DNA of 64,000 bases. It comes from an archaeon. Lineage in GTDB: Archaea > Micrarchaeota > Micrarchaeia > CAILAH01. Shown here piece after piece: positions 26,563 to 50,595 of this stretch. Each line of letters begins with the position of its first letter. The first letter of the stretch is position 1. The stretch is from assembly GCA_024274875.1 (NCBI GenBank), contig JAJSAH010000020.1:3897-67896 (forward strand), read 5' to 3'. Made by a program: the position numbers and the translations under genes. The notes beneath the pieces were generated by a model, which worked only from the letters and a program-made list of their open reading frames with translations, ran no database searches and was not told the origin of the DNA.

Positions 26563-29244
26563 TTATGGTTTGCTGTCCTCATAGTAAGAGCAAGAGACAG
26601 TTGTGACCTGAGCAACGGAAATGCTGTCCATATTCACTGCATCCAACGTTGATGATATTCCGCTGTCAGCATCAAGCAAGCTTATGGATTTAGATAGCAT
26701 CGAATTAAGCGCAAGATTTCCAAACGCATCTGCCTCCACCACGCAGTCATTTCTCGAGGATATGCAGTATCCATAAATCTCTTCAGATAATGTATCGCAC
26801 TCCTGCGCAACTTGGTCGTTCATTCCTTCATAAGCGCTTGAATATGCATCGAGAAGATATTCTGTGAACATATCTATGCACGCATCTTGTGTTTGCTGTT
26901 TCAAACTTTCGCATGACGATATGATTGACGCTTCGCTTGAGCATTCATCATAATTCTGCGCGCATATTAAGTTTGCGCATAATGAAATTACTTCGTTGGA
27001 GAACCAATCGCACCTGGATGCATACACTCCTTCCGGATGCATATCACCTTCCCAAAGACCTCTAAAAACATCTTTGCACGCATATTTATCCGCATCGTCC
27101 AGCAATTTGCTGCACAGCGAATCCGCAGTTGATGCGCATGAATAATAGTTGCCATAATAATTGCCCTCGCAGGCGCTATGCATGCATTCCATAGATAAGT
27201 TTAACTGCGCATGCCTGATTCCCTCATATAAAAATGATGTAATAACTGGATTCACCTTTGTCGAGCAATCTGGCTCCCTGCCAAGCAGAAAAATCTTTCG
27301 GATAGGGTTAGTTGCGCCATACGGCGCAGCAATCATGTATCTCCATTCCAAATATGAACATCCCGAATAATACTTCTCCTGGCCTTTTATGTAAGGAGAT
27401 CCTCTCATTACTAATACGCCTGTGCTTGCGACAGCAGGTTTTAATTCATCTGGCACTGCAATATCAGTAAGGTAATCTGCAAGTTCTTTGAATGCAATAT
27501 TAATCCTTTGCGAATATCCAAACCCTAGAAGATATATGTTAAATGTATCGCTCACATTTCCATACAACTGCGTTCCAAGCAAGTATTTTTGCTCTGCAGT
27601 CAGCAGTTTCGAATTAAAGCATAGCGATTCAGTAGTTATATCAACAACCTTGCAGGTTCCATCTTCGCACACATCCCTCATACACTGCCTATCAAAAGCA
27701 TCAACTTTCCCGTCTCCATTAAAATCAAACCTTCGGTCATACAATGAAGTGCACTGCGCATAACTCTCTGAAGAGCCAATATTTTCACCGCAATACGCAT
27801 CGAATATCTGCAAATCTGCAGTGTTTAGCAGCTCATCGCCATTCAAATCATACATTGCGCCATCATAATTGCACTCATAATAATTATCTACGCATATTTC
27901 AGGAGATTCTGTTTCAAAAACCCATGATGGAAGATCGGGATTATCCATCCAATCGTTAAATTGGTCTTCAGTGAATGTAGTCCATTCATTTTCGCCCTGC
28001 TCATCAGTTGATGTGCAGGCGATTGAGCCCGTGCTTAAAGGCAATACTCCAAATCCTCTGGCAATCAAGTTAGATAAATCAATGCATAAGAACTCAATGT
28101 CGCCTCTCTCAAACACTTCGCCCTCTTCACTGGCGCATGCGCCTGTTGATGCATCCCTGCATTCATACGGGCATGCGGGATCATAAACAAACCCTGGCGG
28201 GCAATCGCCGGCGCTCATGCAAGAGTATGTTTCAGAATCCGGCAAGGTCTTTGCGCACACTGAACCTGCGCACTCAACGCATGTCCCTGAAGCATCGCAC
28301 ACAGAGCACTGCTGGCCAACCAGTGATTCAGCGCATAGCATATTTTCGCATGATGCGCAATCCCCGCTGTTGACATCGCAACACCCAGAATCGCATCCTG
28401 CGCACGAATAATAACCTTCAGGGCACGCACCGATATCTGCGCATGTGTATGTTCCTAAAACGTTTGCGCACACTGAATCGCTGCACTCAACGCAGGTTCC
28501 GGAAGCATCGCACACAGAACACTGCTGGCCAATCTGTTCTGGGGAGCATTGCGCACCGCTGCACGATGCGCATTCTCCAGTTGCTGCTGCGCAGCATCCA
28601 GTATCGCAGTTATCGCATTGAACATAACCTGCGGGGCATGCGCCTTGCTGCTTGCACACATTCCTGTTGAGCAACGAATCATACGCGCAATAACTGTTAT
28701 CAGTGCAATCCGCGCAATTGCCTGATGAATCGCATATCTTGCATCTTTCTCCGGGTTCATCGCAAGGTTTATCGCTGCACCCTTCCAACAGTTCGCATCT
28801 GCCCTGAGCATTGCATGCATAATCCGAACAACAGGACTGCACATCCTGCGGATCGCACAGCAACCCTGCCTCGCAAGGCGCGCACTCTCCATCTGAACAC
28901 ACATATCCTGCGCAGCACGAGTCCTGCTCGCCGCACGATGCCGGATTTACACACGCTTGCTGAACCGCAAGACATTCCTGAGGGTTATCAACACTGCAAC
29001 ACTCGCCTTTCGGATTCATCACATATCCCTGCCCGCAAACGGAATAATCGCAGTAATCGATCTGATTGCCTAATGCATCAAGCACGCAGCACCCGCACGG
29101 ACTATTGCACTCAAATGCTTCATCAGGGCATTCCACTCCTCCATGTTGCGAGAACAACCATATTATAAGCAATCCAAGCACGACAAGCACTACTAATGCA
29201 ACGATTATTCTGTAATCTGCCTCGCCTCTATTTAACATTCCCAT
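26563..29244 (-). CDS. TM-anchored cysteine-rich surface protein with dockerin-like repeat pair (893 aa)
   Basis: N-term TM IVALVVLVVLGLLIIWLF; about 100 Cys in CxxC/CC modules in first 370 aa incl. a duplicated ~71-aa module; DLNGDELLNTADL...DFNGDGKVDAFD; last gene of operon. Confidence 0.7.
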   Translation of the reverse strand: MGMLNRGEADYRIIVALVVLVVLGLLIIWLFSQHGGVECPDEAFECNSPCGCCVLDALGNQIDYCDYSVCGQGYVMNPKGECCSVDNPQECLAVQQACVNPASCGEQDSCCAGYVCSDGECAPCEAGLLCDPQDVQSCCSDYACNAQGRCELLEGCSDKPCDEPGERCKICDSSGNCADCTDNSYCAYDSLLNRNVCKQQGACPAGYVQCDNCDTGCCAAATGECASCSGAQCSPEQIGQQCSVCDASGTCVECSDSVCANVLGTYTCADIGACPEGYYSCAGCDSGCCDVNSGDCASCENMLCAESLVGQQCSVCDASGTCVECAGSVCAKTLPDSETYSCMSAGDCPPGFVYDPACPYECRDASTGACASEEGEVFERGDIEFLCIDLSNLIARGFGVLPLSTGSIACTSTDEQGENEWTTFTEDQFNDWMDNPDLPSWVFETESPEICVDNYYECNYDGAMYDLNGDELLNTADLQIFDAYCGENIGSSESYAQCTSLYDRRFDFNGDGKVDAFDRQCMRDVCEDGTCKVVDITTESLCFNSKLLTAEQKYLLGTQLYGNVSDTFNIYLLGFGYSQRINIAFKELADYLTDIAVPDELKPAVASTGVLVMRGSPYIKGQEKYYSGCSYLEWRYMIAAPYGATNPIRKIFLLGREPDCSTKVNPVITSFLYEGIRHAQLNLSMECMHSACEGNYYGNYYSCASTADSLCSKLLDDADKYACKDVFRGLWEGDMHPEGVYASRCDWFSNEVISLCANLICAQNYDECSSEASIISSCESLKQQTQDACIDMFTEYLLDAYSSAYEGMNDQVAQECDTLSEEIYGYCISSRNDCVVEADAFGNLALNSMLSKSISLLDADSGISSTLDAVNMDSISVAQVTTVSCSYYEDSKP

Positions 29245-29251
29245 TTAACAT

Positions 29252-30862
29252 TCACCTCTGAACCACAACTGGGTCTGCAAAACATTGTTGCCCTTCCGGG
29301 CATGTTGCCGCTATGTTATCGCAATAATCTTCAGGAAGCACTTTCATAGAGTATGTAGGGTATTCATACGGAGACACTTGAGATGAGCTGTAATATGAAT
29401 TGCCACCGCAATCAAACGCATAATTAAACACTCCATCGCCCTGCTCATATGAAACTGTGCAACACGAACCCTGTTGCGCATCCTGATACCCTGATGCGCA
29501 TACATCAGAGGTTGTTGAAACAACACCGTCAGGGATGGCATTGCGCGGCAGTATGTACATGCAACATGCGTCAGGGTTATCGCTGCATTCGAATGCTCCA
29601 CTTGGACATGCCGCCTCAACAGATGGAGCGCATATGATCATGCCTCCTATTTGCTCGCACTCAGGCAATATAACTGCGCAACCGCGCCCTTCGCATAAGA
29701 ATGTTCCTTCTGGGCAAGCCACTATATTTTGCGCGCCCTGCTCGCAACAGCTGCAACCCTCTACATTTTCACATGGGTGACCGCTTGCACAGACCGAACA
29801 TTCGCCGGTCAAAGCATCGCAGCATCCTGAAGCGCAATCCTCCGCACTGCAAGCAACCTGTCCTTCACCGCAATTCCCAGAACTTTGACAAGTGAACATA
29901 GACGCTGCATCATTCCACGCGCACACAGTATCATCTGCGCAATCAATGCAATCATTTCCTGAGCAAACTATGCATGCTTCGCCAGGGTTGGAACATGGAA
30001 AACCTTCGCATGATTCCGCATACGCGCACGAACCCTGCGAACATACGCCGTCATCGCAGCAATCCTCGCTGAATGAACACGACCTGTCGCAAGATTCGCA
30101 GGCATTTGCATTCATATTGCATTCAAACCCGTTGCAGCATGGCTTGTCTTCATCGCAATACGCGCCCTGCTCGCAACCGCTGCACGATCCGTCTATGCAT
30201 GCATCGCCATCGCAACAATCCACATCAGATGAGCAGGAACGATAACAGCTTTCGCAGGCTCCAGCAACGCAGTTCCATCCGTTGCAACACTCATCATCTT
30301 CCGCGCAGGTTCTCTCGCATGAGATGCAAAACTCATTGCTGCACTCATAACCGCCGCAACAATCCGAATCAGATGCGCACGCAACATTATTGCAAGATTC
30401 GCATGTTCCCTCAGCCGTGCACATGAAACCTGAGCAACATGAGTTTGGGTCCTGCGGATCGCATACAAGCCCTGCTTCGCATGGAGCGCATCTTCCATTA
30501 CTGCATGAATAACCTTCGCAGCAATCCAAACTGCTTTCGCATGAGAGAGGATTAACGCATACTTTTTGATTAGTTATGCAATTCGCTGGGTTCTGAGCAT
30601 TGCAACACTGCCCTGTGCTTGGATTAAGTGAAAAACCTTCTGGGCACGACCCTGTCTCGCAGTACTCTACCAAATTGCCAAACCCATCTTCCACGCAGCA
30701 TCCGCATGCGCTTAGTGATGCATCGCACTGCACAGCTCCTTCTGGACAATTCCCGCCCAAATTCTGAAACAAAAGCATGAACAACAGCAAAAGCATGAAC
30801 CCAATAAGTAATATTGCAAGAAGTTCCATGCCTGTGTCATTATTTCTCCAAAACGGCATCAT
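29252..30862 (-). CDS. TM-anchored cysteine-rich protein, paralog of the N-terminal half of the 893-aa protein (536 aa)
   Basis: N-term TM LLAILLIGFMLLLLFMLLF; shares GRCAPCEAGLVCDPQD block (vs GECAPCEAGLLCDPQD); >90 Cys. Confidence 0.7.
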   Translation of the reverse strand: MMPFWRNNDTGMELLAILLIGFMLLLLFMLLFQNLGGNCPEGAVQCDASLSACGCCVEDGFGNLVEYCETGSCPEGFSLNPSTGQCCNAQNPANCITNQKVCVNPLSCESSLDCCEGYSCSNGRCAPCEAGLVCDPQDPNSCCSGFMCTAEGTCESCNNVACASDSDCCGGYECSNEFCISCERTCAEDDECCNGWNCVAGACESCYRSCSSDVDCCDGDACIDGSCSGCEQGAYCDEDKPCCNGFECNMNANACESCDRSCSFSEDCCDDGVCSQGSCAYAESCEGFPCSNPGEACIVCSGNDCIDCADDTVCAWNDAASMFTCQSSGNCGEGQVACSAEDCASGCCDALTGECSVCASGHPCENVEGCSCCEQGAQNIVACPEGTFLCEGRGCAVILPECEQIGGMIICAPSVEAACPSGAFECSDNPDACCMYILPRNAIPDGVVSTTSDVCASGYQDAQQGSCCTVSYEQGDGVFNYAFDCGGNSYYSSSQVSPYEYPTYSMKVLPEDYCDNIAATCPEGQQCFADPVVVQR

Positions 30863-30872
30863 TCCACCTATT

Positions 30873-33800
30873 CTACTCGCATTTATATTTCTTATACAAC
30901 TCCATCAAACGCGATTGGTCGCACATGTTGCCCTGCTGACCTTTAGGAATATCACTTTCAGAGAATATCATCAACGCCTGGCCTTCTCCCATATAATAGT
31001 AATTGCCGCATAAGTCAAACCAATGGCGCGCATACGGATCCTTCCTAACTGCGTTCTCAAGTATAACATCTGGATTGTTAACATCTTCAAATGAATTTAA
31101 CAGGTCTGCAACATCACTGCCTTCTCCGAAACTTGGCAGAGATATTCCTGATGAAGACAGCAGGTCTGAGTAAGATGATATTGTGTTTTCAAACTGCCCA
31201 TAACTTGATGCAAGATCCCCCTCCGTTTCGAAAGATGTGCTTGCAGACGATCCAAACATCGCTCCAGCATACTGCGAAAATGTGGGCATTCCGGGATACA
31301 GTTGATCCGTATGCACTCCATACGTGAATGGATCTTCCCCGCTTGTTGATGAATCATAATACAATCCGTAATCTTCGCCAGCTATCCCTGTTGACAATGG
31401 TTTGCACGAAGTATCAACCAAACAATACTGCCCCATGCCTATTATGCCTGAGCCGATCATTATCACAAAATCCTGGCCGTATAGGTCTTTCAGCTGCTTA
31501 ATCATTTCAGTATTAGTCCAACACGATTCATCCTCGTTTGCATTTCTATTTATGCCAAACCCTATTATTATTGATGGCATTCCATGATTAACAAGAGCAT
31601 ACCGCGATACATTATACAATCCTTCCAAATATGAAGAAATGGTGCACTCGCCTCTGCGCCCTGCGCCAGGGTCATCAATCACGACAATATATCCAACCAT
31701 ATCTGCCCTTTGCAGACCTTCACCCATTTTTTCTTTCAGCTTTTCATCAATCGCATCAATAGCATTCTTCATATTCTCTATATCAGCATCGCTCAACCTA
31801 AGTTCATTTGATGACATATGTATGTAAAACGGAATTGTCGAAATGCACCTCTGCTTGTAAACAGTGTTCTCATAAGGGCACATATACTTATATTGCAAAC
31901 CGTAACTTTCGCAGAAATCCTTATCTAAATCAACGCAGATGCCAGTATCCTCATCGCAGCAGCATCCATCAATTGAAAAATCGCGGTAGTCATAAGTATG
32001 CTCGATGTTTTCAGTTTCGGATTGTTCAGTTGCGCCGCCGCAAACTTCATCATCAACAGATTTAACGCTTCTGCACACACCCTCAATCTCTGCAATCTGG
32101 TCAGCAAGCCCTGAATAGCCTTCATCGCCTACGCTCGCAAGCTGGCTTACATCAATAAGCTCAGTTGTGATAAAGGAAGGTGTTGCAGGAGCGCGCGGGT
32201 TTAGCAGCTGCGTCCTGTAAACTGGATTATCCGCGCCCATTTTAGGCTCTGCGATTGATTCAGCAATCTCAGCCAGTATTGATAATTGGCTCGGGCTGCC
32301 AATCTCATCAACTGTGGCATATAGTTGCCTCTGCGTCAACGAATCTATAATTGAATGGGTGCTAACACGCTGCGCATCTCTGCATACGCGATCTCCAGGG
32401 CTCAAAGATTGCTCATCTTCAAAACCAGTTAAATAGTCTTTGAATATCACCGTTCGATCTTCATCATCTCTGTTAGTTATGCATAAGCGCGAATCTTCGC
32501 TGTTAGGAATGCTTACTTTTCGCGGCTGGAATGAGCTTATGTCTAACTCAATCTGAACCTCAGGTTTATACACATTAACTGTAAAGCTTTTTCCAGAGTA
32601 AGGGTTGTAAAATAGATACCTGATTTTTTTGCCATCGTTCGGTATCTGCAGCTCATTCGCAGTATTGAATGTTTGATGCTCGCCAGGACTTAATTCAAGC
32701 CGTCTTATCTTATCGCCCATCTCCACAGATTTGGCAGACAAGTATGCATCCATATCGATCGGGCTTACTGAATACTGCACGGAATCAATTATGCAATCCT
32801 CATAATCTCCGCTGCATATTTTGGTCATCTTATTCTGTATAACTCCATATATATCATCTTCCGAACACGGATCGAGCGCGCCGTAATACCATACAACTGC
32901 ATCAGGCCCTGTGTTATTTATAACTATTTCATCGCCGAGAGCAACATCAAGCTCATCAACTGAAACTGCGGTAGACGGATCACCTGGATCGATCTGCTGC
33001 ATTACGGTTAAGTTGTATAGATACACATCTGCATACAATGCGTTCTCCATAATGTAATCCATGCTAAGCGAAGTATTTCTGTACATTCTCCCATCGTGCG
33101 CAAAAGATGGCACTTTGTACAGCAAATCGCCCAACTCAGTATCTGCAAGATTGCGAGCGAACGGCGATATATGAGAAAATATAATTTCCTTCCCATCTTG
33201 CACATCTAAAAGATTTGGGTAGTAAGGCGACTCATGCACTGAATACCATCCCTGCATATCTGGAGAGTATGAAACCGTGCCAAGCGGCGAGATAACCTCT
33301 TGAATTCCATCAAATGTGTCCTCTCCATAACAAACCGCTTTCAGCCCTGACTCGCTGTTAATTTGGAATACGTCTGAGATCGCATAACCCTGCCCAAACT
33401 CGCTCACTCCTTCCTGAACCTCGCCTGCCAAAAAGTACGTGCGCCCAGGATCAATGCTGTTCACCATGAACAGAATGCCGTTTGTAAGAGAAGATTCATC
33501 TATTCCTCCTCTTATTCTGTTTCCTGGATCTAAATCATTGTTTGGATTGCTGGATGTATCGCAGGGCGTTTCTGGGAATTCGTAATAATCATTATTTATG
33601 AACCTATACACTCCATTATACTGGCCCACTGGATTTGATAGGTCGAAAAAGCGCACTCTTCCGCTCTCATCTTCTGAATATGCAAATGAATCTATTCCGC
33701 CAATCACATTCGCCAAATACCAATTGTCATCTCTCGTGCCCTTCAACTGGGAATCTGCGCCCCAATCCTGCTTTGTAGCCCTGCACCAATACCAAAGCTC

Positions 33801-36800
33801 TGTGCCTTCCTCATCAACTGTGCTATCTTCTGCAGGATAACCGCACAGCGCCCCGTATTTGTTGTATATTATCAACGGCTTAGAAGCAGCAACTATTAAA
33901 TCTGACCACAAAGCATTCTTAACATCATTGCTTAACCTACCTGGGATAGGCTTTGCTTCAAAATCCCGCTTATCACCGCAAGTCCTGCCGCCATAATTTT
34001 GGTTATAATCTCCTACAAAATCGCCCGTAAGCAAAAACGGCTGGGTCGTAATCAGCCTGCCGCACGGCCTCTGTATAGAATAATCATCAACAAATTTGAG
34101 GGCCGCATCATTGATTATTTCGCCATTCGCCAATATGAGCGTTTCTGGAACAATTTCAACAAAGCGTGAATCTGCGATATCGATTTTTCCATAATCCTGC
34201 CTATGCGACAGATCATACGGGTTTGGCACACTGCCAGGCATAATCGAACCAAATCCATACTGCAATCTGCCCACAACCTGCGGAAGCAGCACATAATCAT
34301 TTCTCTTGCTGCGCAAATACTCATATTTGCCAACGCCCCCAGCAAACGCGTCTCCTCCAAGCTCAGGCACTCCAATAATATGAGGAAATGAGTATGCAAA
34401 TTCTTCAGGATACACTGTGTTGTTGAACGGAACTATGAACCCAATCTTTTCTCCGATAGTATTTACATAACCGCACCCTGATTTCACCCAACCTGGCCTT
34501 TCCTCGCCGGGATTCTCGTTGTGGTACCACTTATCATACCACATGCTTGGGAATACATTAACACCCTTAACAACAAACAACGATCCTTTCCAATTCTTCA
34601 GCATGCTTTCACTGAATGCGCCTCCCGAATCGCTGTTGCTTAATATCCACGAACGGCCTGGCGCATACCTCCTGAGCAGTACTGAATAAGAATCTGAATA
34701 AACATCTCCTCCCAAGTCAACATATGTAAATCTCATTATCTTGTCGGATGTCTCTAACGCAATAGGAGTGAATATTCTGTACTCCCTTACTGCAAAGGTA
34801 TCCTTCATCCCTGTGATATACCCAGGAGTTAACTCAATTGTTCGCTGTTCAAGCTTAGATGTATATGTGTTTGGGATTATCCTATGCGTGCTTTTCAGCA
34901 CAAGAGACCCTACTCCATTTTCATCTGTATCTTGACTCCTGCCCAAAGATAATTTAATATCATCATATCCCATGTTCGGCAGCAGGGTTATATCAGTAAC
35001 TTTGGCTGCGCCGCCAACATACGGATCATGATTTGATAACGCATCTATATCGCTTGCCGATAAAGAATATGCAGTCATTTTCTGCGGGCTCCAAAACTGC
35101 TGAAGATCTGCTGTTGCGGGAGAGCCGTCATCAACTAACATGCAGTAAGAGTTTGCGCTGACATCGCTCGGCCTAAGCATTACTGCTCTGGGATCCTCTG
35201 CAAGATTGTGAAGCCTAACGAGATAATTGTCCGTTCCATGACTGTCCATTCTGTACGCATCATAAGAAACTTTCAATTCGTGAGTAACCGCGGCTTTCTT
35301 TAAATTGAACTGCTTTGACACTGTTCCGCTGCTCACGCTGAAAGTTATATCTTCATCAGGCATTTCAAAACTCCATCCATTCAACGAAGGCGAATATGCG
35401 CCAGCTTCAGGAGGAGCAGATACATCATCTCTTGAAATTCCATCTGCAAGCGTCACATTGACCTTGCTGCCTTCTGCGATTGAATAATTCTCAGGAATCG
35501 AAGGGTCAACCATATTAACATCAGTATCGCCAATTCTGGAATACACAAATACAGGCAATGCGTTATCATACGCGAGCATAGAACGCGCCTGCATAATCTC
35601 TGTCTTGCTCGGAACGCCGGACAACATTTGAACGCCAAACCCTAATGTGCTGCTTGAACCTACCCTTCCCAACGCAGATGCAGAACCTCCTTCAACATCG
35701 CCGCGTATCACTAACATATTTTTGGGAATATTGAACTGCTGCGCATCTTCATCATAATAACTTAGAGCAATGCCTCCTATCCTGCGCACAACAAAAACAT
35801 TAGCGCCAGGACGCAAAACTATTGAATCTCCACTGATCATGCGCCGCGCATTAATGCCAACCTCGAGATTTACAAAACCTGATTTCATATCATCCTCCTT
35901 GTACTGCACATTAAGCGCGCGCATCTTGTAATCTCCAAGCTGATATTCATACACTACCTGCTCGTTCGCAGGCGCTGTGATTGAGCGTTCTCCGTTTGAT
36001 GAATAAACTTTAATAGATATATCATAATCCGCATTGTTGCGTATCACGACATCCGGCACAGACAAATCTAACCTTGCCATGCTGAACCCTGTCCCATTTG
36101 AGATAGATAAATCCTCATACACTTTGTAATTAATATCATCAAGATTAACTACTTTTACATCAGGGAATTGCGAGAACAGATCTAAATTGAGCGGACCTTC
36201 AAACGCAGATGCGTAATCTGGAAACGCAACTTCAGCATATCCAGGCACGGAATTGCCGTTTACTATATATAATATGTTCTTGTCCCCTACCGCAACAAGA
36301 GCGTACAACCCAGTATCAGCATTCCTGAACATGTGCAATCCATCTGAATTCATATCATAGCATCTTTTCTGGCCTTTGGAAATCAATTCGCCTGACTGCG
36401 CAGCGCCGTTATCCCATTCCAAAGAAGACGAATCTGAAACTAATGTTGGCCCAATTATCCTAACATCAGAATCTACAGCATTTATGCATACCTTTCCGCC
36501 TTGAGCGACCCTTCCATCAGTAGGAACAAATGCAGTTGAATACGCATCTATGTTAAGAACATCGCCCCCAGTAGTTGAGATGTAAAACTTTGCGCCGGAC
36601 AATGTATCAACCAATTCATAGTTTGCTTCATTCTCAGACAAACTATAATCGCAGTAATCCTGCAACGGAGGCAACATAAATGAACCTGAATGCCCTTCAT
36701 CGCTCGAATACTCAACCTCTCTCTCTTCTCCAACAGGGTTTGAGATGCATATGAGGTCATCCTTTTTTGCGATAGATGAATACGGGGAATAATCATAATC

Positions 36801-40070: not shown

Positions 40071-40071
40071 C

Positions 40072-41136: not shown

Positions 41137-41137
41137 G

Positions 41138-42241
41138 TTATACCGCCCTCATAATGCCGCTTATGTCAACTTCCGTGCCTAACGCACCTGAAATGCTGCG
41201 GACCGCTGCTGCCATAAGCATCACTTCCAAAACTGGCAGGAAGAATGCTATCAGCATTATTGACCCAAATGATGAATAAACGCTTGCTAAGTCGGATTCA
41301 ACATATTCCGAAGATCCGGTTATAAACCCTAATTCTGATGCAGCCATGGTTGATCCTGTTGCAATGCCCATTACCGCTCCAAGCTTCGACGCGCTTCCTA
41401 TTGCGCCTGCCAAAGATACGCCAAGCATGGCTGCAGATAACGGGACTATATAAACCATTGCGTCAACGCTGTCAAGCTCGCTGTAATCAACACCTCCCGC
41501 CATTTCAAACCCGAAAGTAACCATCAAAGGATATATGAATGACATTCCAAGCGACACTGCGATTAGCACGCCGCCAAATTTCCTAGTTAAAGAAAATGAC
41601 CTGAACACCAACCCCACAGGAAGAAGCATCATGAATACTTTGCTCTGCGCAATCTTGAATATAGTATACTGAAAGATTATGGAAAAATACGCAAGCAAAA
41701 CTGATTGAGAAACTGGGGCAATCATGCTTGCCACTATGCTATGCGTGCCGAATGGGGATAACAGTACGCTCACGCCATGCAATGAAAAACCTGTGTAAGC
41801 GCTGCCAAGTTTTGAGTAATCCATGATTGCATTCGACATATCAAGGTATACATCAAGGATTGTTCCAGCAAGCATCTGAAATTTGCTCTCCGTCTGAACA
41901 ACCATCGCGCTCACCCCTCCGTTATAACCCAATCCATCTTCATATATGGAGATGCCGCATAGCAAAGGGATGACTGCGCGCAATGCAACTGCAAGCAGCA
42001 AAGTAATCCCTATCTGCTGGAATTCATTTTTAGTGGTCGCCTCTATTTCCGGGCTGCCCATCAGGCTGCCAATCATATACCATAATGAGACAAGCAGCCC
42101 AGAAATCATTATTCCCATAAGGAATATTGATGCAAGGTCATCTGAAATAATTTGCGCGCAGGAAGATGATTGCGCGTGCGCATCGCTGGCAATTATTGCA
42201 AGCATGATGACCAATGATGCTGCTAGTGTTCTTAACTTCAT
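41138..42241 (-). CDS. Polytopic membrane protein, paralog 2 of 6 (signal peptide)
   Basis: LPVGLVFRSFSLTRKFGGVLIAVSLGMSFIYP; C-term GTEVDISGIMRAV; N-term MKLRTLAASLVIMLAIIASDAHA. Confidence 0.6.
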   Translation of the reverse strand: MKLRTLAASLVIMLAIIASDAHAQSSSCAQIISDDLASIFLMGIMISGLLVSLWYMIGSLMGSPEIEATTKNEFQQIGITLLLAVALRAVIPLLCGISIYEDGLGYNGGVSAMVVQTESKFQMLAGTILDVYLDMSNAIMDYSKLGSAYTGFSLHGVSVLLSPFGTHSIVASMIAPVSQSVLLAYFSIIFQYTIFKIAQSKVFMMLLPVGLVFRSFSLTRKFGGVLIAVSLGMSFIYPLMVTFGFEMAGGVDYSELDSVDAMVYIVPLSAAMLGVSLAGAIGSASKLGAVMGIATGSTMAASELGFITGSSEYVESDLASVYSSFGSIMLIAFFLPVLEVMLMAAAVRSISGALGTEVDISGIMRAV

Positions 42242-42242
42242 A

Positions 42243-43334
42243 TCATACCACCCTTACCAACTGCGAGAAATCAATCTCGCTACCAAGCAAATGCGCAAAC
42301 TCGCGCGCCATTCCTAATGAAACAATAATTGCAAGCATTGGCAACAGCATGCCTTCCACGCCCATCGTCAGAAAGATAACTGCTATGCCTGAACTGCTGC
42401 CATAGGACAGGTTGTCTGCCGCATTCCCAACTAAATCTGAAATGGTGGGGTTGTCAAAACCTGAACCAACGCCAAATTCAGAAGCAAGACCTTTGTATGC
42501 ATCTGTCTTGCCTGCGAACTTAGTCATTATGACGCCTCCTAGGTCAGTGAGGATATCTGATTCTCCGCACTTTGGATCTGACGGATTATAGCTCATCCCC
42601 ATCGTTTGCACGAGCAATTCTTTGTTGAACAGGTACATGCCAGGCAGCACTAAGTACAGAGCCATGAACAGCGCTATGAGAAGGTTGCCCGCATGCCTGG
42701 AGAACTTAAACGACCTAAAGAATATGCCTAGCGGGAGCAGAGCGCTTGCCCCTTTATCGACAACAAACGAAATGATCAAATGATGCAATTTAACCATGCC
42801 AAGAGGTATGAACATATAACTCTGCACATTTGCAACTGAAGTCAAAAGCGGCTGCAGAAACGGCGCAAACGATATGCCTGCATGCCAAGTTGACAAGCCA
42901 GGCGCCTTGCCTTCCTCTTTGTCCTTCCCGCTGGATTTCATATTGGCAGTATCAGTATCCGATGCAGATTTAACATCCTGCGGAGTGCCTCTCATGCTGA
43001 ATACAGATGGATTAAAATTGAATGTTATCGATGCAATCAGCGAAAGAACATTGGAATCAGCAATGAAGGATGCCTGACATGAAACCATCTTGTTGAACAA
43101 GTAAGATATATACTCCTGCGAAGAGGTCACATAATCAGTTATGTATGAAAATGATGCAAAGGACGCCAAACTTGCAAACAGAACTAAAGTGATGAACACA
43201 TTCTGCATCTCGAGCTTCGACCAAGCTCGCAGAACTTCTGAGTTAAGGAGGTATGACAGCATGTATATGAGCACAGTAAGCAGGTATGATGAAATTACAC
43301 CTATTATTGCAAGCTCGTTCCAAGTAACCATCAT
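42243..43334 (-). CDS. Polytopic membrane protein, paralog 3 of 6
   Basis: LPLGIFFRSFKFSRHAGNLLIALFMALYLVLP; C-term GSEIDFSQLVRVV. Confidence 0.6.
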   Translation of the reverse strand: MMVTWNELAIIGVISSYLLTVLIYMLSYLLNSEVLRAWSKLEMQNVFITLVLFASLASFASFSYITDYVTSSQEYISYLFNKMVSCQASFIADSNVLSLIASITFNFNPSVFSMRGTPQDVKSASDTDTANMKSSGKDKEEGKAPGLSTWHAGISFAPFLQPLLTSVANVQSYMFIPLGMVKLHHLIISFVVDKGASALLPLGIFFRSFKFSRHAGNLLIALFMALYLVLPGMYLFNKELLVQTMGMSYNPSDPKCGESDILTDLGGVIMTKFAGKTDAYKGLASEFGVGSGFDNPTISDLVGNAADNLSYGSSSGIAVIFLTMGVEGMLLPMLAIIVSLGMAREFAHLLGSEIDFSQLVRVV

Positions 43335-44728
43335 AACAACCTCCCTAACGCAGGTATCTCAACATCGCCGCCCAACAATGGAGACAGCCCGCGTATGAAT
43401 GAGAATAATACATAGAAGTTTATCAACGGCAACGCCAGCGCAACTATCAGGTATCGAGAAATAAGGTCAAACGCGCCTACCTTTCCTGTTTCATAGTCTG
43501 TGTACAAATCATTCGCATCCTTGATTGTTGCACTGTTAAGGCTGCTTATAGCTACCAACACTGATATAAGCACAAGCACATCGATAGCCGTTTTAAGGAT
43601 GCCTCCAGGGGTCGTCACAAGCTTTACTATTTCAGCTACGCGCAATGCAGTAAAACCCATTATAACTAATAGCATTGCAAGAGCCGAACCTAGCGTGCTA
43701 TCCCCAAATGCATCGGGCAACTCTGATATTGTTTCAAAGAAATCCTCCTCGCCAGTTTCAGGAATACCCATGCCAGACATGCTAGCGCTCTCAGATATGC
43801 CTGCCTCCTGCATAGGTTTTATATCAATCGTGTACCACCCCAATGCATAAAGCATCGGAAGAACATACATAAACCCAATCCCCATCGCAAGGAATAAGCC
43901 TCCGGCTTTTCTGAATACCCATATTGACCTAAATAAGATGCCAAGAACTATCAACCCGCTCGCAAGGCCGAACTCAAAAAACTTGAGTATGCTTTCTTGG
44001 AATTTGATGATCATCATTATCTTTTCCGTGAATGCAATGAGGTTGTCAAGAGTGTTCAGAAGCACTGAGTGCAGCGGGAAAGATGATGCAAAACTTATCC
44101 CAAAAATCTGGTCAAGAATGCTCATGTCTGTGCTGAACCCAAACGAATCTATTGAGTAATATATTGAGTAATCATGCATGAAATTTTTCAAAAGAACTGC
44201 AAGCTTTTCATAAGTTATCCCTAAGTACGAACGTGCCATGAGGAATTTTGGGTCGCAGTTTTCAGCGCCTGGACCTGTGCATACTGCCTTGCCTCCGACC
44301 ACCGAAACTTTTAGCCCATTTCCTGATTCTCTCCACCTGTTTGAGGCGGGATCATAAACCAAATCAGTCCTTAATTGGTGGCATTCAGGACCTTCGCAGC
44401 TCACCTGCGGATTAACGATGCCTACAAAAAACTCATCAGTAATGCCATTCACAAGCGCAAGCGCGCCTACCAGCGATGCAACGATTATTGCAGAAAATAC
44501 TGCCTGCATAACCTCATTCCTGCACCACGCTTTGATTTCCTCATCTTCAAGCATATACGAAACCATGTACGCAAGCGAAACCAACAGCAGATGAATTATG
44601 ATTACTGCTGCAGCAAGCGAAATCCAACCTGTTGTGTTGAACAGGTCAAACCACCCAACATCATCGCTAGCAGCGTAAGCAAGAATCATCAACATCGCGA
44701 ATGACAGAAGAATTTTGCTAGACATCAC
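43331..44728 (-). CDS. Polytopic membrane protein, paralog 4 of 6 (Cys-containing extracellular loop)
   Basis: LGILFRSIWVFRKAGGLFLAMGIGFMYVLP; C-term GGDVEIPALGRLL; loop CEGPECHQ...CTGPGAENC. Confidence 0.6.
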   Translation of the reverse strand: MMSSKILLSFAMLMILAYAASDDVGWFDLFNTTGWISLAAAVIIIHLLLVSLAYMVSYMLEDEEIKAWCRNEVMQAVFSAIIVASLVGALALVNGITDEFFVGIVNPQVSCEGPECHQLRTDLVYDPASNRWRESGNGLKVSVVGGKAVCTGPGAENCDPKFLMARSYLGITYEKLAVLLKNFMHDYSIYYSIDSFGFSTDMSILDQIFGISFASSFPLHSVLLNTLDNLIAFTEKIMMIIKFQESILKFFEFGLASGLIVLGILFRSIWVFRKAGGLFLAMGIGFMYVLPMLYALGWYTIDIKPMQEAGISESASMSGMGIPETGEEDFFETISELPDAFGDSTLGSALAMLLVIMGFTALRVAEIVKLVTTPGGILKTAIDVLVLISVLVAISSLNSATIKDANDLYTDYETGKVGAFDLISRYLIVALALPLINFYVLFSFIRGLSPLLGGDVEIPALGRLL

Positions 44729-45657
44729 ATCGGCACCTCACCAATAAAGTCTTTTGAGAACATTGGGAACACTGACCTCGCTGCCGCAATAGACAAAATC
44801 ACCGCAAGCAATGGCAGAGTTAGCGCGTAAGGCGATATGTACGCGAGCCTCGTGACCGCTTTAAGCGAATCTCCATCATCAAAATCATACGCATCGCCAA
44901 GCGCAGAACGATCTATGCGCTTCTCAAGCTGCTTCAAGAAATCCTTGCTAACATCCTCATGAATCTTCGCGCCGAGCACATACACCATGGGATACACAAA
45001 ATAGAATGCAAGGGAAAGCGATATTAAATACGCACCTGCATCGCGCGTGGTTGGGAGAATCTTCAGTATAAATCCTGCCGGAAGCAACAGAGCTAAGAAA
45101 TATCTCTTTATGAAATCAAGCGCTAATATCTGCATCACCAAAGATGCCGAAAAAGGGATTATTACATTAGCCATCATCTCAAGATTGTTCGCTATGTACA
45201 CGCTGCCTGCCTTCTCCGTATAACACGTCCCTGCCATGCATGAAGGAGCGGGAGTGATGAGAGTTGATTCTACGCGCGCTTTGACTGCAGAATCCCACAG
45301 GATATTTATGTTAAGAGGTATGGAGTCCTCATAAACTGATCCTATTGCAAACCGAGCAAGGTAGGCTCTGCCAACTGAGAACGGATCCTCGCCTTCACCT
45401 ACCATGAGCGAAGTTGTTTCATACAACAGCGCAGCAAACCCAATTATCCCTATTATCATGAGCAATGAGATGACCAACCTTGCAAACTCTACCTTTGCCC
45501 TGCCTTCCCAATCAGGCCTCTGCATAACCCTCGCTATCATGTAAAACAGCGCAATTATAAGATAAGTGATTATGAACAGCAGCATTACCACAGGTATCCA
45601 AGAGAAATACCCTTGAGGCTCAAACAATAAATCAATGAATGTCACCACCATAATCAC
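44725..45657 (-). CDS. Polytopic membrane protein, paralog 5 of 6
   Basis: LPAGFILKILPTTRDAGAYLISLSLAFYFVYP; divergent C-term. Confidence 0.55.
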   Translation of the reverse strand: MIMVVTFIDLLFEPQGYFSWIPVVMLLFIITYLIIALFYMIARVMQRPDWEGRAKVEFARLVISLLMIIGIIGFAALLYETTSLMVGEGEDPFSVGRAYLARFAIGSVYEDSIPLNINILWDSAVKARVESTLITPAPSCMAGTCYTEKAGSVYIANNLEMMANVIIPFSASLVMQILALDFIKRYFLALLLPAGFILKILPTTRDAGAYLISLSLAFYFVYPMVYVLGAKIHEDVSKDFLKQLEKRIDRSALGDAYDFDDGDSLKAVTRLAYISPYALTLPLLAVILSIAAARSVFPMFSKDFIGEVPM

Positions 45658-47040
45658 CTATATGAATGTAAGCATGTTTACCACTGATTCATCACCGCCG
45701 AACGCTTCAACAAGCGCTTTCATGCCGCTCAGCACAAACACTATGTTAAAGAACGGCATGAAAAATGCATACGCAAACATATCTGCGCTCATGGCAATTT
45801 GGCTTGCGATGGCTTCTCCAATCTGAATGCCTACCAATCCAGGACCGCTCAAAATCAATGACAATACGGCCGATACGGATGTAAGCACGCTGTACACCAA
45901 GCTTATTATGGTCCATAAGACATCAAATGTCCATACAACTACGCCCAATACAGGAAATATGGATACGCATACAGCAATGCATATGTACCTCAAGAAGCCT
46001 GACGGGCATTGGTCAACAAGCCAATTGAAAAAGTCCCATAAATATACTGGTATGTTAAGCAGGCTGAAAAAATTAACTATATCTGAGGGCAGGCCTGATG
46101 CAGATGACACAGTGCTATCCATGCTTATGCCTAAATTGTTTAATCCTGCATCGCGCAAAAGAATCTCGGAAGATGTGCTCCCTGAAGAATCTATGCCTGT
46201 CAACTGGCCTGATGCGCTAAGCTGCGAATACACCGCTGCCTCAAACACAAGTATCAACTTGAAGAACAAAAACCCGCCTAAAAATATGCCTAATAAAGTG
46301 CTTCCCATCCTCCTCGTAAAAGTGAATGCGCGGAGAAATAACGCAAGGCCTATGAATATGTGAATTGTTTTCTCAAAAAATGCCAGCAGAAGCATCTGCC
46401 CGGTTATAGAGATAATTGCTGTAATAAGTATGGGCATGAACATGCTCGCAAATACCATAACTAAAGAATATGCTGTCTGCGGCGCGTAGTAGAATGAATA
46501 CGTCCAGCTCACAAAAAATGTGTTGTATGCTGCGGGAGACCAACTAATTGCGTTGAGCAATGATGCAAAAGATGTAAACTGCGAAAGGCCAACCAACTGG
46601 TCAACTGATGAATGAATCACTGAAGAAAAAACTTCTTGATATGTTTGATCAGGAGTAAATGAATTTACCAACGCATCGAATACCGGGAAAAATGCAACTA
46701 TCAGAGCAGCATACACCGTGCTCATAAACACTTCCCTAAGCTCTGCTCTGCTCCAAATCTCCAACTCCCTTGAAGAGAATATTGAAGCGCCCATAAACCC
46801 TAACGCAACGATTGCATATGAAATTATCAGCGCAATCGCAATCCCATAATCAAATAGAAAACTTTCCAAACCAGTATCCTGCGGTGGGACCTGAAACTCA
46901 GATCCTTGCACTCCCGCCTGCGGAAATGCTTCGAGCTCTGAGCCCTGGCCTTGCAACGGATGAACCTGAGAATAAGCCGCGCCTGCAATTAAAATGAAAA
47001 AAAGCACCGGCAAGAACAGGCGGTTAGCGCTTGCATCCAT
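45658..47040 (-). CDS. Polytopic membrane protein, paralog 6 of 6 (first gene of operon; signal peptide)
   Basis: IGLALFLRAFTFTRRMGSTLLGIFLGGFLF; start set at MDASANRLFLPVLFFILIAGAAYSQ (ORF-track start 47136 would overlap divergent gene). Confidence 0.55.
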   Translation of the reverse strand: MDASANRLFLPVLFFILIAGAAYSQVHPLQGQGSELEAFPQAGVQGSEFQVPPQDTGLESFLFDYGIAIALIISYAIVALGFMGASIFSSRELEIWSRAELREVFMSTVYAALIVAFFPVFDALVNSFTPDQTYQEVFSSVIHSSVDQLVGLSQFTSFASLLNAISWSPAAYNTFFVSWTYSFYYAPQTAYSLVMVFASMFMPILITAIISITGQMLLLAFFEKTIHIFIGLALFLRAFTFTRRMGSTLLGIFLGGFLFFKLILVFEAAVYSQLSASGQLTGIDSSGSTSSEILLRDAGLNNLGISMDSTVSSASGLPSDIVNFFSLLNIPVYLWDFFNWLVDQCPSGFLRYICIAVCVSIFPVLGVVVWTFDVLWTIISLVYSVLTSVSAVLSLILSGPGLVGIQIGEAIASQIAMSADMFAYAFFMPFFNIVFVLSGMKALVEAFGGDESVVNMLTFI

Positions 47041-47098
47041 AACTTGAATTCGCTGATTAAATATATAAATATGATATGAAATATAGCTTTGACATAAC
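47041..47098. promoter_or_regulatory. Divergent promoter region with shared TATA element
   Basis: ttaaatatataaatat centred about 30 bp from both the 47040(-) and 47099(+) starts. Confidence 0.4.
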
Positions 47099-50000
47099 AT
47101 GAGCATGAAAGCTTTGCACAGCAGTTTGCTAGCCATATTTGTAATTTCGTTGTTAGCGCTTAACCTAATCCATGCTAGCGCAGGATGTCTTATTCAAAAA
47201 ATCCCCACAGCGCTTGAGTTAAAAGAATCATACGATCCAGACACAAACAAGCTAATACTTTATGCTAAGTTGACATACATAGACCCAAATACTGGATTGG
47301 GCAAACCGCTCGAACAAAAAAAACTTAAATTCTACGTGAATTACACCACATCGCAAGGCAGTGAAAAAACTGATTCTTCAGTTTTATTTACTGACAGCAA
47401 AGGGAAGGCATCTGCGTTATTCGTTCTAAGCAATGCAGCAGAGCATAATTCAGCGGTTGTCTTTGAAGGCGATGATCTGTTTGGGAAAAGCATAGGCACA
47501 TTAAGCGGTGCGAAGGGCGCGCCGCAATCGTTTGAAACAAATCTTCCTGAAGGCATAAACATTACTACATGCATGCCGCTGCTTCTGCTGTTGGGATTTC
47601 TCGGTGCAGCGATGTATGCATCTGGAATGAATCCGTTTGGAGCTATTGATTTTACCGCGCCGCGCGGATTTACGATGCAGCGCAGGCTAAGGAAAGCATA
47701 CCAAGCAGGGTGGTTCTCAAGCATCGCAAGAGCTGTAGGGGGAACGCTGAGCGCAGTCGGCAGGTCAATGGTTAAAGGAAAAGGGGTTAAGGAAGAGGCG
47801 ATGAAAGAAGGAGAGAATGCAAACGAACAGAAGACCAAAGAGAAACTGCCTGTTAAGGGTAAGGGCAAGGGCAAATTGCCTACAAAAAGCAAAGGCGTGC
47901 GCATGGCCAGCAAGCAAGCGAAAAAAGCAATGGCCGCAAAAAAGCCTGTTGCAAAACCTAAAAAAATGGAAAAACCTCTGGGAGCGAAAGCAACGCTTGG
48001 AAAAGCCGCTCCAAAAGATGTTAGTTTAGAACAGCCAAAGACAGCTATCGCGCTCACCGCAACAGCAGGTTATGGGTTGATGCTCGACTTTTTAGGATGC
48101 ATTGCATCCGCCATGGGCGGCAATGTATGGGCTGCTAGTGGAATGAAGCTCAAAAAGCTCGATTTCATTAAAGATGGAAATAAGTACAAAGGTTATGTTA
48201 TACTCACGAACGCAACAACTCAAATCGTCAAAAAAGCTCTCTTTGAAGCTGCAAAAGAGCTATGGGCTAATAATTCATCTGTGCGCGAGGTAGGAAGCGC
48301 TTTGGCAAATGCAGTGCGTCAACTATCAGTGAATGCAGAGATTGGAAAAGACCTTGCAAAACGATTGGAAGAAGCAGTAGACTCGTTAAAAAACAAAGAA
48401 AAAAAGCTTAAAAAATCCATCAAATCGCTAAAAAAAGAAATAGAAAAAATCGAAGATAAGATGGATGTTGTGGGACCTGAAGAAAGAAAGTCACTCGCAA
48501 AGAAGCTTAATGAGAAAAACATTGAGCTGGACCTTGCTAAAGAACATCTCAGCGATGTTAAAGAAAGGATTACTGCTATTGAGGGAAAGATAAAAGCAAC
48601 TGAATCAATCATTGGAATGCCTACAAGGCTTGAGCAGATTGCGGAAGGCGCAAAACAGGTGAGCGAGATTGAAGAATCGCTTGCTGAAGTGCGTGAATCA
48701 GCGAAAAAAATATTTGAAGAGTTTGGCAGGGAGATGGGCGTAAGAAGGTATGACCAAATAAAAGTGAATAATCTCGAAGAATTCGCAAAACAATTAGAAA
48801 AGAAAGGCGATACTGAGAGGGCTGCACAGCTTCGAAACATGCTTGATGAATTCAAATCGAGCATGATTGATGCAGCGAACGCGCTAAGCAATGCGAGCAT
48901 GTTTGTGGGAAGTTCAAACGCAATGATACATAAAGGAAGCAAATTGTTGGGCGAATCTAGATTCCTTGCGGATGTTGATTCAAAAACTGTGCTGCAAGCA
49001 AAGTTGGGGGATATGGCAAGAAACCTGGATAATGCCATTGTTGGTTTCAACACGGTCAAAACCATGATTGATAATGGAATTCCAGTGAATTACAACATAG
49101 CTGTGAACTGCATAGATGATTTGACTGCTACGCTCGCAGCGCAGGGCATCAAATCAAAAAAGCTTGATGAACTGAGAATTAAAATGCATGAGTTAATTAA
49201 AAACCCTGAAACTGCCAGCGAAACCTTGAAAAGCATGCTCTCAATCGCGGATACGGATGTTTTACAAAATATTCGCAAGCACACCGAAAAATATGGCGTG
49301 CAGATAAAAACGCGCGGAGAGTTTGATAAGTTTATAACTAATATGAATGAGAAAGTGCAAAAAGCCGAAAAACCCGTGCAGGAAAAATTAGCTGAACCTG
49401 TTAAAAATCTTAAAGAATCCTATGATGCGCTGATTTCGTTCAGGGAACAGATGAAAGAGAATAAAGAGGTTGATTATCAGAAGCTAAACGAGCAAATCAA
49501 TAAAGCTAAAGAGTCGATTAACGCGCTTGGAATCAAACCCCCTGAAGCGCTTGACAAAATTAAGGAGAAAATTAAAGAACAGCCTGAATATGCAGATGAC
49601 AAATCTATCGGCAATATAATTGCAACAATAGATGTAGAAATTCTTCCTGAAGTAAAGAAACTGGCTGAGGAGAATAATCTTGAAGTAACCACAGAAAGCA
49701 GGTTTGATGAATATGTAAAAAATCTGAAGAAAGAATCAACGAAAGCGTGGGAGAAGAAAGACAAATATGTAAAAGAATACATGGCGGAGAAAGCAAAGAG
49801 CATGGCAAAAACTGAAAAAGAAAAAAAGATGGCTTCTAAATCTCCTGAGGCGGTGGTGCTGCGTCCAGTTGAACAGCCAATACCAAAAAACATAAAACTT
49901 GAAACCCCGCATTACGATGAAATTGTTAAGGAATTAAATAGAAGAAGTTACGAAAAGCTTGACAGATCGATAGAAGAAAGGAATAAACAGATTAACGACT

Positions 50001-50227
50001 TCTTGGAAATAGTTCCTGAAGAAAAACGGGATGCGATGGAGAAAGAACTATTTAATGAAAGACCGTTAATGCAAATGGATTTTGGAACGCTTGGCCCTCA
50101 AAAAGTTTTAGATATAGCTGAGGAAGAGGGGATAAGCAAAAGCGTGATAAAAGATGCAAAAAGAGAGATCGAGGGAATTAATCTTTTAAGAGAGGCATTG
50201 GGCCTTCAAAATGAATCTTCTGAATAA
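47099..50227 (+). CDS. Lys/Glu-rich coiled-coil membrane protein (1042 aa), divergent partner of the membrane operon
   Basis: Signal peptide ALHSSLLAIFVISLLALNLIHASAGC, TM ITTCMPLLLLLGFLGAAMYASG, AKK/PKK-rich linker, then about 700 aa heptad-like K/E-rich sequence. Confidence 0.6.
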   Translation: MSMKALHSSLLAIFVISLLALNLIHASAGCLIQKIPTALELKESYDPDTNKLILYAKLTYIDPNTGLGKPLEQKKLKFYVNYTTSQGSEKTDSSVLFTDSKGKASALFVLSNAAEHNSAVVFEGDDLFGKSIGTLSGAKGAPQSFETNLPEGINITTCMPLLLLLGFLGAAMYASGMNPFGAIDFTAPRGFTMQRRLRKAYQAGWFSSIARAVGGTLSAVGRSMVKGKGVKEEAMKEGENANEQKTKEKLPVKGKGKGKLPTKSKGVRMASKQAKKAMAAKKPVAKPKKMEKPLGAKATLGKAAPKDVSLEQPKTAIALTATAGYGLMLDFLGCIASAMGGNVWAASGMKLKKLDFIKDGNKYKGYVILTNATTQIVKKALFEAAKELWANNSSVREVGSALANAVRQLSVNAEIGKDLAKRLEEAVDSLKNKEKKLKKSIKSLKKEIEKIEDKMDVVGPEERKSLAKKLNEKNIELDLAKEHLSDVKERITAIEGKIKATESIIGMPTRLEQIAEGAKQVSEIEESLAEVRESAKKIFEEFGREMGVRRYDQIKVNNLEEFAKQLEKKGDTERAAQLRNMLDEFKSSMIDAANALSNASMFVGSSNAMIHKGSKLLGESRFLADVDSKTVLQAKLGDMARNLDNAIVGFNTVKTMIDNGIPVNYNIAVNCIDDLTATLAAQGIKSKKLDELRIKMHELIKNPETASETLKSMLSIADTDVLQNIRKHTEKYGVQIKTRGEFDKFITNMNEKVQKAEKPVQEKLAEPVKNLKESYDALISFREQMKENKEVDYQKLNEQINKAKESINALGIKPPEALDKIKEKIKEQPEYADDKSIGNIIATIDVEILPEVKKLAEENNLEVTTESRFDEYVKNLKKESTKAWEKKDKYVKEYMAEKAKSMAKTEKEKKMASKSPEAVVLRPVEQPIPKNIKLETPHYDEIVKELNRRSYEKLDRSIEERNKQINDFLEIVPEEKRDAMEKELFNERPLMQMDFGTLGPQKVLDIAEEEGISKSVIKDAKREIEGINLLREALGLQNESSE

Positions 50228-50595
50228 AAGGAATCTACTCGGTTGTCAATGTGCGCGCGGTCTTTCCCGTACACATGAGGCAGCAGGGCGCCGCTGAATG
50301 TCTTAGGTATGTGGAGGAGCTCGTGCAAAATCGTCTTCTCCTTCTCAATGCTGCTTAGCTTATCAAAATGTTCATGCAACACTTCTAAAACATAAAATGC
50401 ATCAATATCAAGAGCAATTTTCCAAACCTGCGGCATGCTCCATATCCTAGCATAAGCGTTAGCTTTGCTGCCATAAGACCGCACGCAAAGAATCCTGTAT
50501 GAATTTATATGCGTTAATTTATCCCTAAATTTCTCGCTAACATTGATAACGATTGCATCAACATCAGGAGCTTTCTCATATCGCATCCTAACCAT
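50206..50595 (-). CDS. Small HExxH-motif putative zinc metallopeptidase
   Basis: ILHELLHIP; 129 aa; 3' end overlaps 47099..50227 by 22 nt (convergent). Confidence 0.45.
   Translation of the reverse strand: MVRMRYEKAPDVDAIVINVSEKFRDKLTHINSYRILCVRSYGSKANAYARIWSMPQVWKIALDIDAFYVLEVLHEHFDKLSSIEKEKTILHELLHIPKTFSGALLPHVYGKDRAHIDNRVDSFYSEDSF

Follow-up and report, generated by a model that had tools for sequence, protein, structure and literature searches.

A conserved array of six paralogous membrane proteins coupled to a giant lipobox protein as a candidate envelope machine of Micrarchaeota

What kind of system do ten closely coupled genes encode on the chromosome of a micrarchaeon, where no familiar secretion or surface apparatus can be recognized? 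The genes occupy positions 26563-47040 on the minus strand of a 64,000-nucleotide stretch (contig JAJSAH010000020.1, positions 3,897 to 67,896; the whole stretch is called the window below), which is a piece of a Micrarchaeota (DPANN) chromosome. They encode six paralogous polytopic membrane proteins (M1-M6, together the hexad), a small membrane-anchored protein (S7), a giant lipobox protein (G8) and two Cys-rich proteins (C9 and C10), while a coiled-coil protein gene (CC) is transcribed divergently. We consider it about an even chance (probability roughly 0.5) that the cluster is a Micrarchaeota-specific, vertically inherited envelope machine, with a hetero-hexameric base that holds a surface complex and serves to anchor or display a contact or adhesion structure.

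The hexad opens the run with M1 (position 1; 45658-47040, 460 aa, a polytopic membrane protein with a signal peptide), followed by M2 (position 2; 44725-45657, 310 aa), M3 (position 3; 43331-44728, 465 aa), M4 (position 4; 42243-43334, 363 aa), M5 (position 5; 41138-42241, 367 aa, with a signal peptide) and M6 (position 6; 40072-41136, 354 aa), all on the minus strand. M2 is the smallest, core-only member, M3 carries an enlarged Cys-bearing extracellular insert, and M6 is the best-conserved member. The successive gaps among the ten genes are 0, -4, -4, 1, 1, 1, 0, 10 and 7 bp, with abutting or overlapping stop and start codons along the run. M1 most likely starts at position 47040 and not at 47136, where a longer open reading frame (ORF) begins, because this start gives a signal peptide and because the recorded product (P0001) is 460 aa long. 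This start leaves a spacer of 58 bp (47041-47098, 78% A+T) to the divergent CC gene at 47099. Read directly from the sequence, the spacer holds the TATA-like run TTAAATATATAAATAT and is a putative divergent promoter.

An earlier note, made from the letters of the window alone, had described this ten-gene run, the six polytopic paralogs, a transmembrane (TM)-anchored 257-aa protein next to a 2807-aa lipobox protein, two TM-anchored Cys-rich proteins (one with a dockerin-like module) and a 1042-aa coiled-coil gene leaving from a TATA-containing spacer. All of these features were recovered, as was its assignment to a DPANN archaeon, which the closest relatives of the window proteins (named Candidatus Micrarchaeota or Micrarchaeia) narrow to the Micrarchaeota. 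Its observation that ATPases, pilins, secretins and sortases are missing also agrees with our library scans, which detected no such domain among the cluster proteins.

The six membrane proteins are true but highly divergent paralogs, with 20-25% identity and E-values between 1e-5 and 2e-11 in pairwise BLASTP alignments. A hidden Markov model (HMM) of the family matches M1-M6 at E-values of 1e-55 to 1e-84 (3.6e-55 for M1), and no other ORF in the window is matched. The family is large. A profile search against 1.84 billion representative proteins returned 2,951 clusters (at 50% identity) at E ≤ 1e-3 and 2,044 at E ≤ 1e-10, and all matches for which an organism is given belong to Micrarchaeota or to an ‘uncultured archaeon’. 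Orthologs of M2, with 46-83% identity, were likewise found in Micrarchaeota only. M1-M6 match nothing in Pfam, NCBIfam, PHROGs or PADLOC. Neither two family profiles nor G8 and C10 gave a significant match when PDB sequences were searched, and no description of the family or of its six-gene order was found in open-access papers and bioRxiv. The polytopic family is previously undescribed and is covered by no curated model.

The strongest regularity of the family is its number and order. Every locus long enough to judge contains exactly six tandem family genes, including four loci that are only 22-28% identical to the window (L011, L012 from Ca. Gugararchaeum, L013 and L014). Even at this level of identity, the gene in a given position best matches the member in the same position of the window. 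In an all-against-all comparison limited to distant locus pairs, position was kept in 193 out of 216 cross-locus best matches, while about 36 would be expected. At closer range, M1 orthologs with 47-50% identity hold position 1 in L001, L003 and L010. Position 3 is the enlarged member throughout, with 465 aa in the window and 812-1683 aa in the distant loci. The long family members (1,100-1,700 aa) contain no Pfam domain save in one case, a related long member that bears a CARDB (adhesion-type) domain.

R205 and G208 (M2 numbering) are found unchanged in 56/56 aligned members, and therefore no copy in the hexad is degenerate. Together with the ordered six-copy conservation, these invariant residues indicate that the six-fold duplication is ancient and that each copy has been individually maintained. 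Because ordered conservation is combined with translational coupling, the evidence argues for six non-redundant subunits of one obligate hetero-oligomer, an assembly that we infer from sequence. The multi-subunit membrane platform suggested by the earlier note is thus strongly backed by the presence of six copies in each complete locus and by positional orthology across deep divergence. We should note that positions 4 and 5 are enlarged as well (754 and 709 aa) in L014 (10053-14451, plus strand), through N-terminal extracellular extensions of about 350-450 aa ahead of the first family TM helix. Position 3 is therefore not the only site of ectodomain expansion.

The AlphaFold2 models of M2 (predicted local distance difference test score, pLDDT, 79.5; predicted template modeling score, pTM, 0.72) and M6 (pLDDT 81.7, pTM 0.75) share one design. 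Both begin with two N-terminal TM helices and an extracellular helical hairpin with a small beta-hairpin, continue with a helix of 50-54 residues, a tight turn and a second long helix, and end with a variable region, a final TM helix and a short tail. As modeled, helices of 50-54 residues would be long enough to project past the membrane. The predicted family topology is N-out with five TM segments and C-in. From the N- to the C-terminus, the alignment comprises an outside N-terminus, a basic inner loop of eight residues, a variable acidic, Cys-bearing outer loop, an inner turn with the invariant motif FPxTRxxG, a second variable acidic outer loop and an inner C-terminus. Both variable outer regions bear Cys residues and are built on the very long helices, and the cytoplasmic turns carry the invariant Arg and Gly and near-invariant Glu and Arg residues. 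In comparisons of M2 orthologs, conservation is higher in the cytoplasmic loops and TM3-TM4 (0.76-0.82) and lower in the extracellular loops (0.58-0.59).

Many family members carry a signal peptide. In the close clade, as seen in the window, L001, L003 and L010, the signal peptides alternate, being present at hexad positions 1, 3 and 5 and absent at positions 2, 4 and 6; in the distant loci (L011-L014) nearly all six members have one. The alternation may hint at an (A-B)x3 arrangement or origin. A Foldseek search against the PDB gave nothing at E ≤ 1e-3. The matches of the M6 model are generic long helical hairpins covering less than half of the model (SMC coiled coil, prefoldin, designed bundles, ESCRT-III and colicin Ia), and the family fold has no solved relative.

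This topology bears on one explanation directly, namely that the six proteins are extremely divergent VirB6/TrbL/CedA subunits of a degenerate type IV secretion system (T4SS) or Ced/Ted-like system, amplified in number and served by an ATPase encoded elsewhere. The hexad proteins resemble VirB6, TrbL and CedA in being polytopic and N-out, with about five TM segments and a large extracytoplasmic loop. Their predicted topology is the same as that reportedly described for VirB6 by Jakubowski and colleagues in 2004 (N-out, five TM segments, a large loop after TM2, C-in). Tandem amplification in host-associated organisms with small genomes is also seen in the VirB6 arrays of Rickettsiales and in the Trw adhesion system of Bartonella, which are the closest parallels in lifestyle but not homologs. 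Unlike members of the VirB6/TrbL/CedA families, however, the hexad proteins have no profile relation to them. PF04610 matches none of M1-M6 in Pfam even at E ≤ 1. When the family alignment (56 sequences) was compared by hhalign with a TrwI alignment from R388 (16 sequences), the probability was 0.13%; the TrwI alignment is narrow (effective number of sequences, Neff, about 2.8) and comprises no CedA/TedA. The latter, being VirB6-like proteins of archaea, are detectable by profile-profile methods only (PMC9905601), a point in favor of this explanation. A fold match to the solved VirB6 structure (TrwI, 7o3v) was not reproduced with the better M6 model, which does not have VirB6 among its top 60 matches.

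The gene content points the same way. Archaeal Ced and Ted systems always carry a VirB4/CedB ATPase and a VirB2-like pilin (PMC9905601), but no VirB4/CedB ATPase, VirB2/CedA1-like pilin or other T4SS gene was found in any of the clusters, and intergenic gaps of at most 10 bp leave no room for small pilin genes. An ATPase of the DUF87/HerA type is indeed encoded 9 kb away (15882-17399, minus strand), but it has a weak HAS barrel, and housekeeping genes lie between it and the cluster. A VirB6/T4SS identity of the six proteins was rejected on the results of Foldseek, of hhalign against TrwI and of the second (M6) model, and their derivation from a degenerate system with a remote ATPase is highly improbable.

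What follows the hexad is as regular as the hexad itself. In nine out of nine loci, the window included, a large lipobox-type protein is encoded directly after it (after S7 in the close clade), bearing out the earlier note in linking the paralog array to a giant surface protein. The start of the giant gene overlaps or abuts the gene before it. In the window this protein is G8 (30873-39296, minus strand), an acidic surface protein of 2807 aa with 64 Cys residues, whose single N-terminal hydrophobic segment is a signal peptide ending in the lipobox FFAGC. Its eight counterparts contain Cys residues and have signal peptides that end in x-[A/S/T/F]-G-C, some of them deviating at position -3 from the lipobox definition that we used ([L/V/I][A/S/T/V/I][G/A/S]C; PMC12462473). 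The complete giants range from 1,321 to 2,948 aa, while that of Ca. Gugararchaeum is cut by the contig end after 104 aa. L018 encodes a full-length G8 ortholog with 39% identity, and a weak cupredoxin-like match occurs at the equivalent position of both proteins. The giants of the distant loci are homologous to each other but could not be aligned to G8 by BLAST or profile search, and they had no match when scanned against Pfam, NCBIfam, PHROGs and PADLOC. The pairing is conserved though the sequence is not, which fits a fast-evolving, outward-facing partner. Archaeal lipobox proteins have been experimentally shown to be archaeol-lipidated (PMC12462473), and G8, predicted to be lipid-anchored, is probably attached through archaeol at its N-terminal Cys. 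In this respect G8 and its positional counterparts resemble the archaeal lipoproteins lipidated by AliA/AliB.

The constant presence of a lipobox protein invites a more modest explanation, in which the cluster takes no part in contact between cells but serves general envelope or S-layer (surface layer) biogenesis and anchoring, or the processing of the adjacent lipoprotein. No signal peptidase for archaeal lipoproteins has been identified and some archaea have no AliA (PMC12462473), and the anchoring of the Micrarchaeota S-layer protein is unexplained (bioRxiv 10.1101/2021.04.28.441871). Six ordered paralogs would be atypical for an enzyme, however, and no catalytic-type Cys, His or Asp motif is conserved in the family, the conserved residues being Arg, Gly, Glu and Pro. 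G8 itself was rejected as an S-layer protein since it matches no S-layer domain and, with its 2807 aa and 64 Cys, differs from the known Micrarchaeota S-layer protein of Ca. Micrarchaeum harzensis (PF05123, about 101 kDa, few Cys). The location of the cluster in the core genome, its vertical inheritance and the occurrence of a hexad in a putatively free-living lineage would all suit a general envelope function, an explanation that we nevertheless regard as unlikely.

A further possibility is that the hexad is a dedicated channel or translocon, either an export or insertion pore for the giant and the Cys-rich proteins or an uptake conduit for host lipids and metabolites. The closest parallel in logic is found in the mce (mammalian cell entry) operons of Actinobacteria, which also encode six tandem membrane paralogs in fixed order and whose products form a heterohexamer projecting a long helical structure, a tunnel for lipid transport. 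As in these operons, the hexad paralogs are ordered and non-redundant, their long helices could line a tube, and conserved charged residues are located at the cytoplasmic face. The analogy is one of gene logic only, as the clusters encode no MCE domain, YrbE permease or MceG ATPase, the subunits have five TM segments instead of one, and the Foldseek match to Mce1, with a probability of 0.11, carries no meaning. Micrarchaeota rely on host metabolites and lipids (PMC8975820), which would give a conduit a purpose, and the constant coupling to a very large, substrate-like secreted protein would suit an exporter. Yet no Sec-like, RND, ABC or MCE domain was detected in the hexad, and none of the clusters encodes an ATPase or permease partner (no ATPase domain was found in the cluster genes of the window or of the eight related loci). 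ABC-2 and other ABC permeases gave no Pfam or NCBIfam match and no ABC ATPase is encoded nearby; when PDB sequences were searched, the family had a single match, which covers about 100 residues of an ABC transmembrane region and is non-significant (E 0.04). The partner proteins carry ordinary Sec-type signal or TM sequences and need no special exporter. We regard a channel as possible, albeit rather unlikely. Anchoring or display is favored over it because no energy-coupling protein is encoded and because the partners have these ordinary Sec-type signals.

The remaining proteins vary more between loci. In the closer clade the whole block is kept in order: CC, the six paralogs, S7, the giant, C9 and C10. 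S7, C9 and C10 each resemble G8 in having a single N-terminal hydrophobic segment. S7 (39297-40070, minus strand, 257 aa) has a single TM segment at its N-terminus, then an acidic linker, and a beta-rich ectodomain in which four Cys are invariant. It had no family match in the library scans, a homolog search returned only S7 itself, and its orthologs occur in the close clade only. C9 (29252-30862, minus strand, 536 aa, 16.2% Cys) and C10 (26563-29244, minus strand, 893 aa, 10.0% Cys) are TM-anchored paralogs of each other (E 1e-36), and C9 orthologs with 39% identity are found at the same position in L018 and L016. In C10, a dockerin-like module with a double Ca loop spans roughly residues 465-521; it is borderline in Pfam (22.8 bits, cut-off 22.9) and includes two canonical D-x-N-x-D...D motifs, DLNGDELLNTAD and DFNGDGKVDAFD. 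A dockerin match was recovered independently in the C10 ortholog of L018 (21.1 bits). A first metagenome scan with the C9/C10 module found nothing. The G+C content of 0.506 in the interval 28001-30000, compared to 0.39-0.45 elsewhere, coincides with these Cys-rich genes and more likely reflects coding composition rather than foreign origin.

CC (47099-50227, plus strand, 1042 aa) begins with a signal or TM segment, which is followed by a small ectodomain, another TM segment and, on the cytoplasmic side, a coiled coil of about 870 aa. It gave only coiled-coil-type matches in the library scans. Conservation in the close clade covers its N-terminal 230 aa, and no counterpart adjoins the distant hexads. 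Membership of CC in the system is uncertain. Since they are conserved in the closer clade only, S7, C9/C10 and CC are accessory rather than core parts.

These accessory proteins recall two further systems. In Mycoplasma, a wall-less symbiont with a minimal genome, the terminal (attachment) organelle combines giant adhesins with coiled-coil cytoskeletal proteins. The cluster likewise encodes a very large surface protein, accessory membrane proteins and the very long coiled coil of CC; it differs in that there is no homology, no six-paralog base is known in the organelle, and CC is not linked to the hexad beyond the close clade. The Ca-loop module of C10 and its ortholog resembles cohesin-dockerin assemblies, which are cellulosome-like and also occur in archaea, although the scores lie just below the Pfam cut-off, Pfam scans detected no cohesin in the cluster, and carbohydrate-active domains are missing. 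Type IV filament systems are not represented either, as neither the cluster nor its flanks encode a T2SSE, T2SSF or pilin domain. In sequence, fold and gene organization, the cluster falls outside every type of secretion, pilus, transport and S-layer system described so far.

Under the envelope-machine reading to which we give even odds, the six paralogs would most likely combine in equal numbers (1:1:1:1:1:1) to give a single hetero-oligomer, and a pseudo-hexameric ring is a plausible shape for it. The conserved cytoplasmic face and the TM3-TM4 hairpins would form the core of the assembly, while the long helices and the variable ectodomains, above all that of position 3, would project into the pseudo-periplasm. 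Translational coupling would ensure that the six subunits are produced together with the lipobox giant. The ectodomains of the platform would then hold a surface complex made up of the lipid-anchored giant and, in this clade, of S7 and the disulfide-rich C9 and C10, with the dockerin-like module of C10 suggesting Ca-dependent docking to a partner. The resulting structure would be displayed towards a host cell or a substrate. For a DPANN lineage, host contact is a plausible role: cryo-electron tomography and electron microscopy have shown that Micrarchaeota and their hosts form attachment sites and filamentous connections, and no gene has been tied to these (PMC8975820).

Several points weigh against this reading. 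A hexad also occurs in Ca. Gugararchaeum, a lineage for which independence from a host has been proposed (PMC8561730), and this weakens a strict role in host attachment. The association of the six proteins with one another and with the giant is deduced from sequence features, and since the fold has no solved relative, nothing in it favors an anchor over a channel. None of the clusters encodes an energy source, which fits a passive structure but leaves export beyond Sec unexplained. The restriction to Micrarchaeota rests on the named members, as weaker matches carry no known taxonomy, and full inspection covered a handful of loci of a family with thousands of members. In addition, S7, C9/C10 and CC are clade-specific. 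In a bolder version, the hexad would be a new kind of hetero-hexameric base or hemichannel, peculiar to Micrarchaeota and spanning the envelope. With the giant and the disulfide-rich partners it would build a bridge by which these very small archaea dock onto cells and take up their lipids or metabolites. This version is doubtful and quite unlikely.

DPANN archaea, which live in attachment to other cells, account for much of archaeal diversity. A large unannotated family (about 3,000 clusters) with a rigid gene order, six ordered paralogs ahead of a lipobox giant, is a testable candidate for a lineage-defining envelope machine. If the proposed assembly is correct, it would add to archaea an obligatory hetero-hexamer of paralogs, which is a rarity there, with a fold that has no solved relative; if the hemichannel or bridge were real, it would represent the missing apparatus of the DPANN-host contact sites seen by cryo-electron tomography. 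Should the function be envelope maintenance, the family would still merit a name, a profile model and a structure.

The surroundings of the cluster are those of a chromosome. The window encodes aTrm56, PCNA, SRP54 (21802-23124), FtsY (33-1040), SecY (3141-4607), TFIIE-alpha, ribosomal proteins and an AglB/STT3-type oligosaccharyltransferase, and the flanking housekeeping genes are syntenic in relatives. A mobile or viral origin was rejected because of these syntenic surroundings and the lack of relatives on viral contigs; the cluster is part of the core genome, vertically inherited and not an island. The AglB candidate (54201-57026, minus strand, 941 aa) has a sub-threshold AglB-core match (24 bits, cut-off 27), its orthologs give weak STT3 matches, and it looks like a very divergent oligosaccharyltransferase. 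The earlier note had based a glycosylation argument on this gene and on a giant said to be full of N-x-S/T sequons. The gene is there, as one part of the conserved housekeeping neighborhood, but G8 is depleted in sequons, with 11 compared to 18.3 ± 3.8 expected from its own composition, and the argument was rejected.

Two ATPase genes of the window were considered as components and rejected. A single-domain KaiC/RecA-like ATPase (25848-26555, plus strand; PF06745, E 2e-57) converges on C10 with a gap of 7 bp but is not conserved beside C10 in L018. The HerA-like gene introduced above is flanked by genes for a spermidine synthase and a Na+/H+ exchanger, with no NurA, Mre11 or Rad50 gene adjoining, and there is no evidence of a link to the cluster. 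At the other end, a small ‘phage metallopeptidase’ gene (50206-50595, minus strand; PF18894, E 1e-18) overlaps the 3′ end of CC tail-to-tail by 22 bp; it is syntenic in L001 and L003 and belongs to the core genome, not to a prophage. ARAGORN predicted no tRNA gene in the 64 kb. Four ORFs of 220-336 aa have no Pfam match (60672-61682 and 61784-62767 on the minus strand, 51473-52216 and 21137-21799 on the plus strand), and the one at 51473-52216 is syntenic beside PCNA in relatives.

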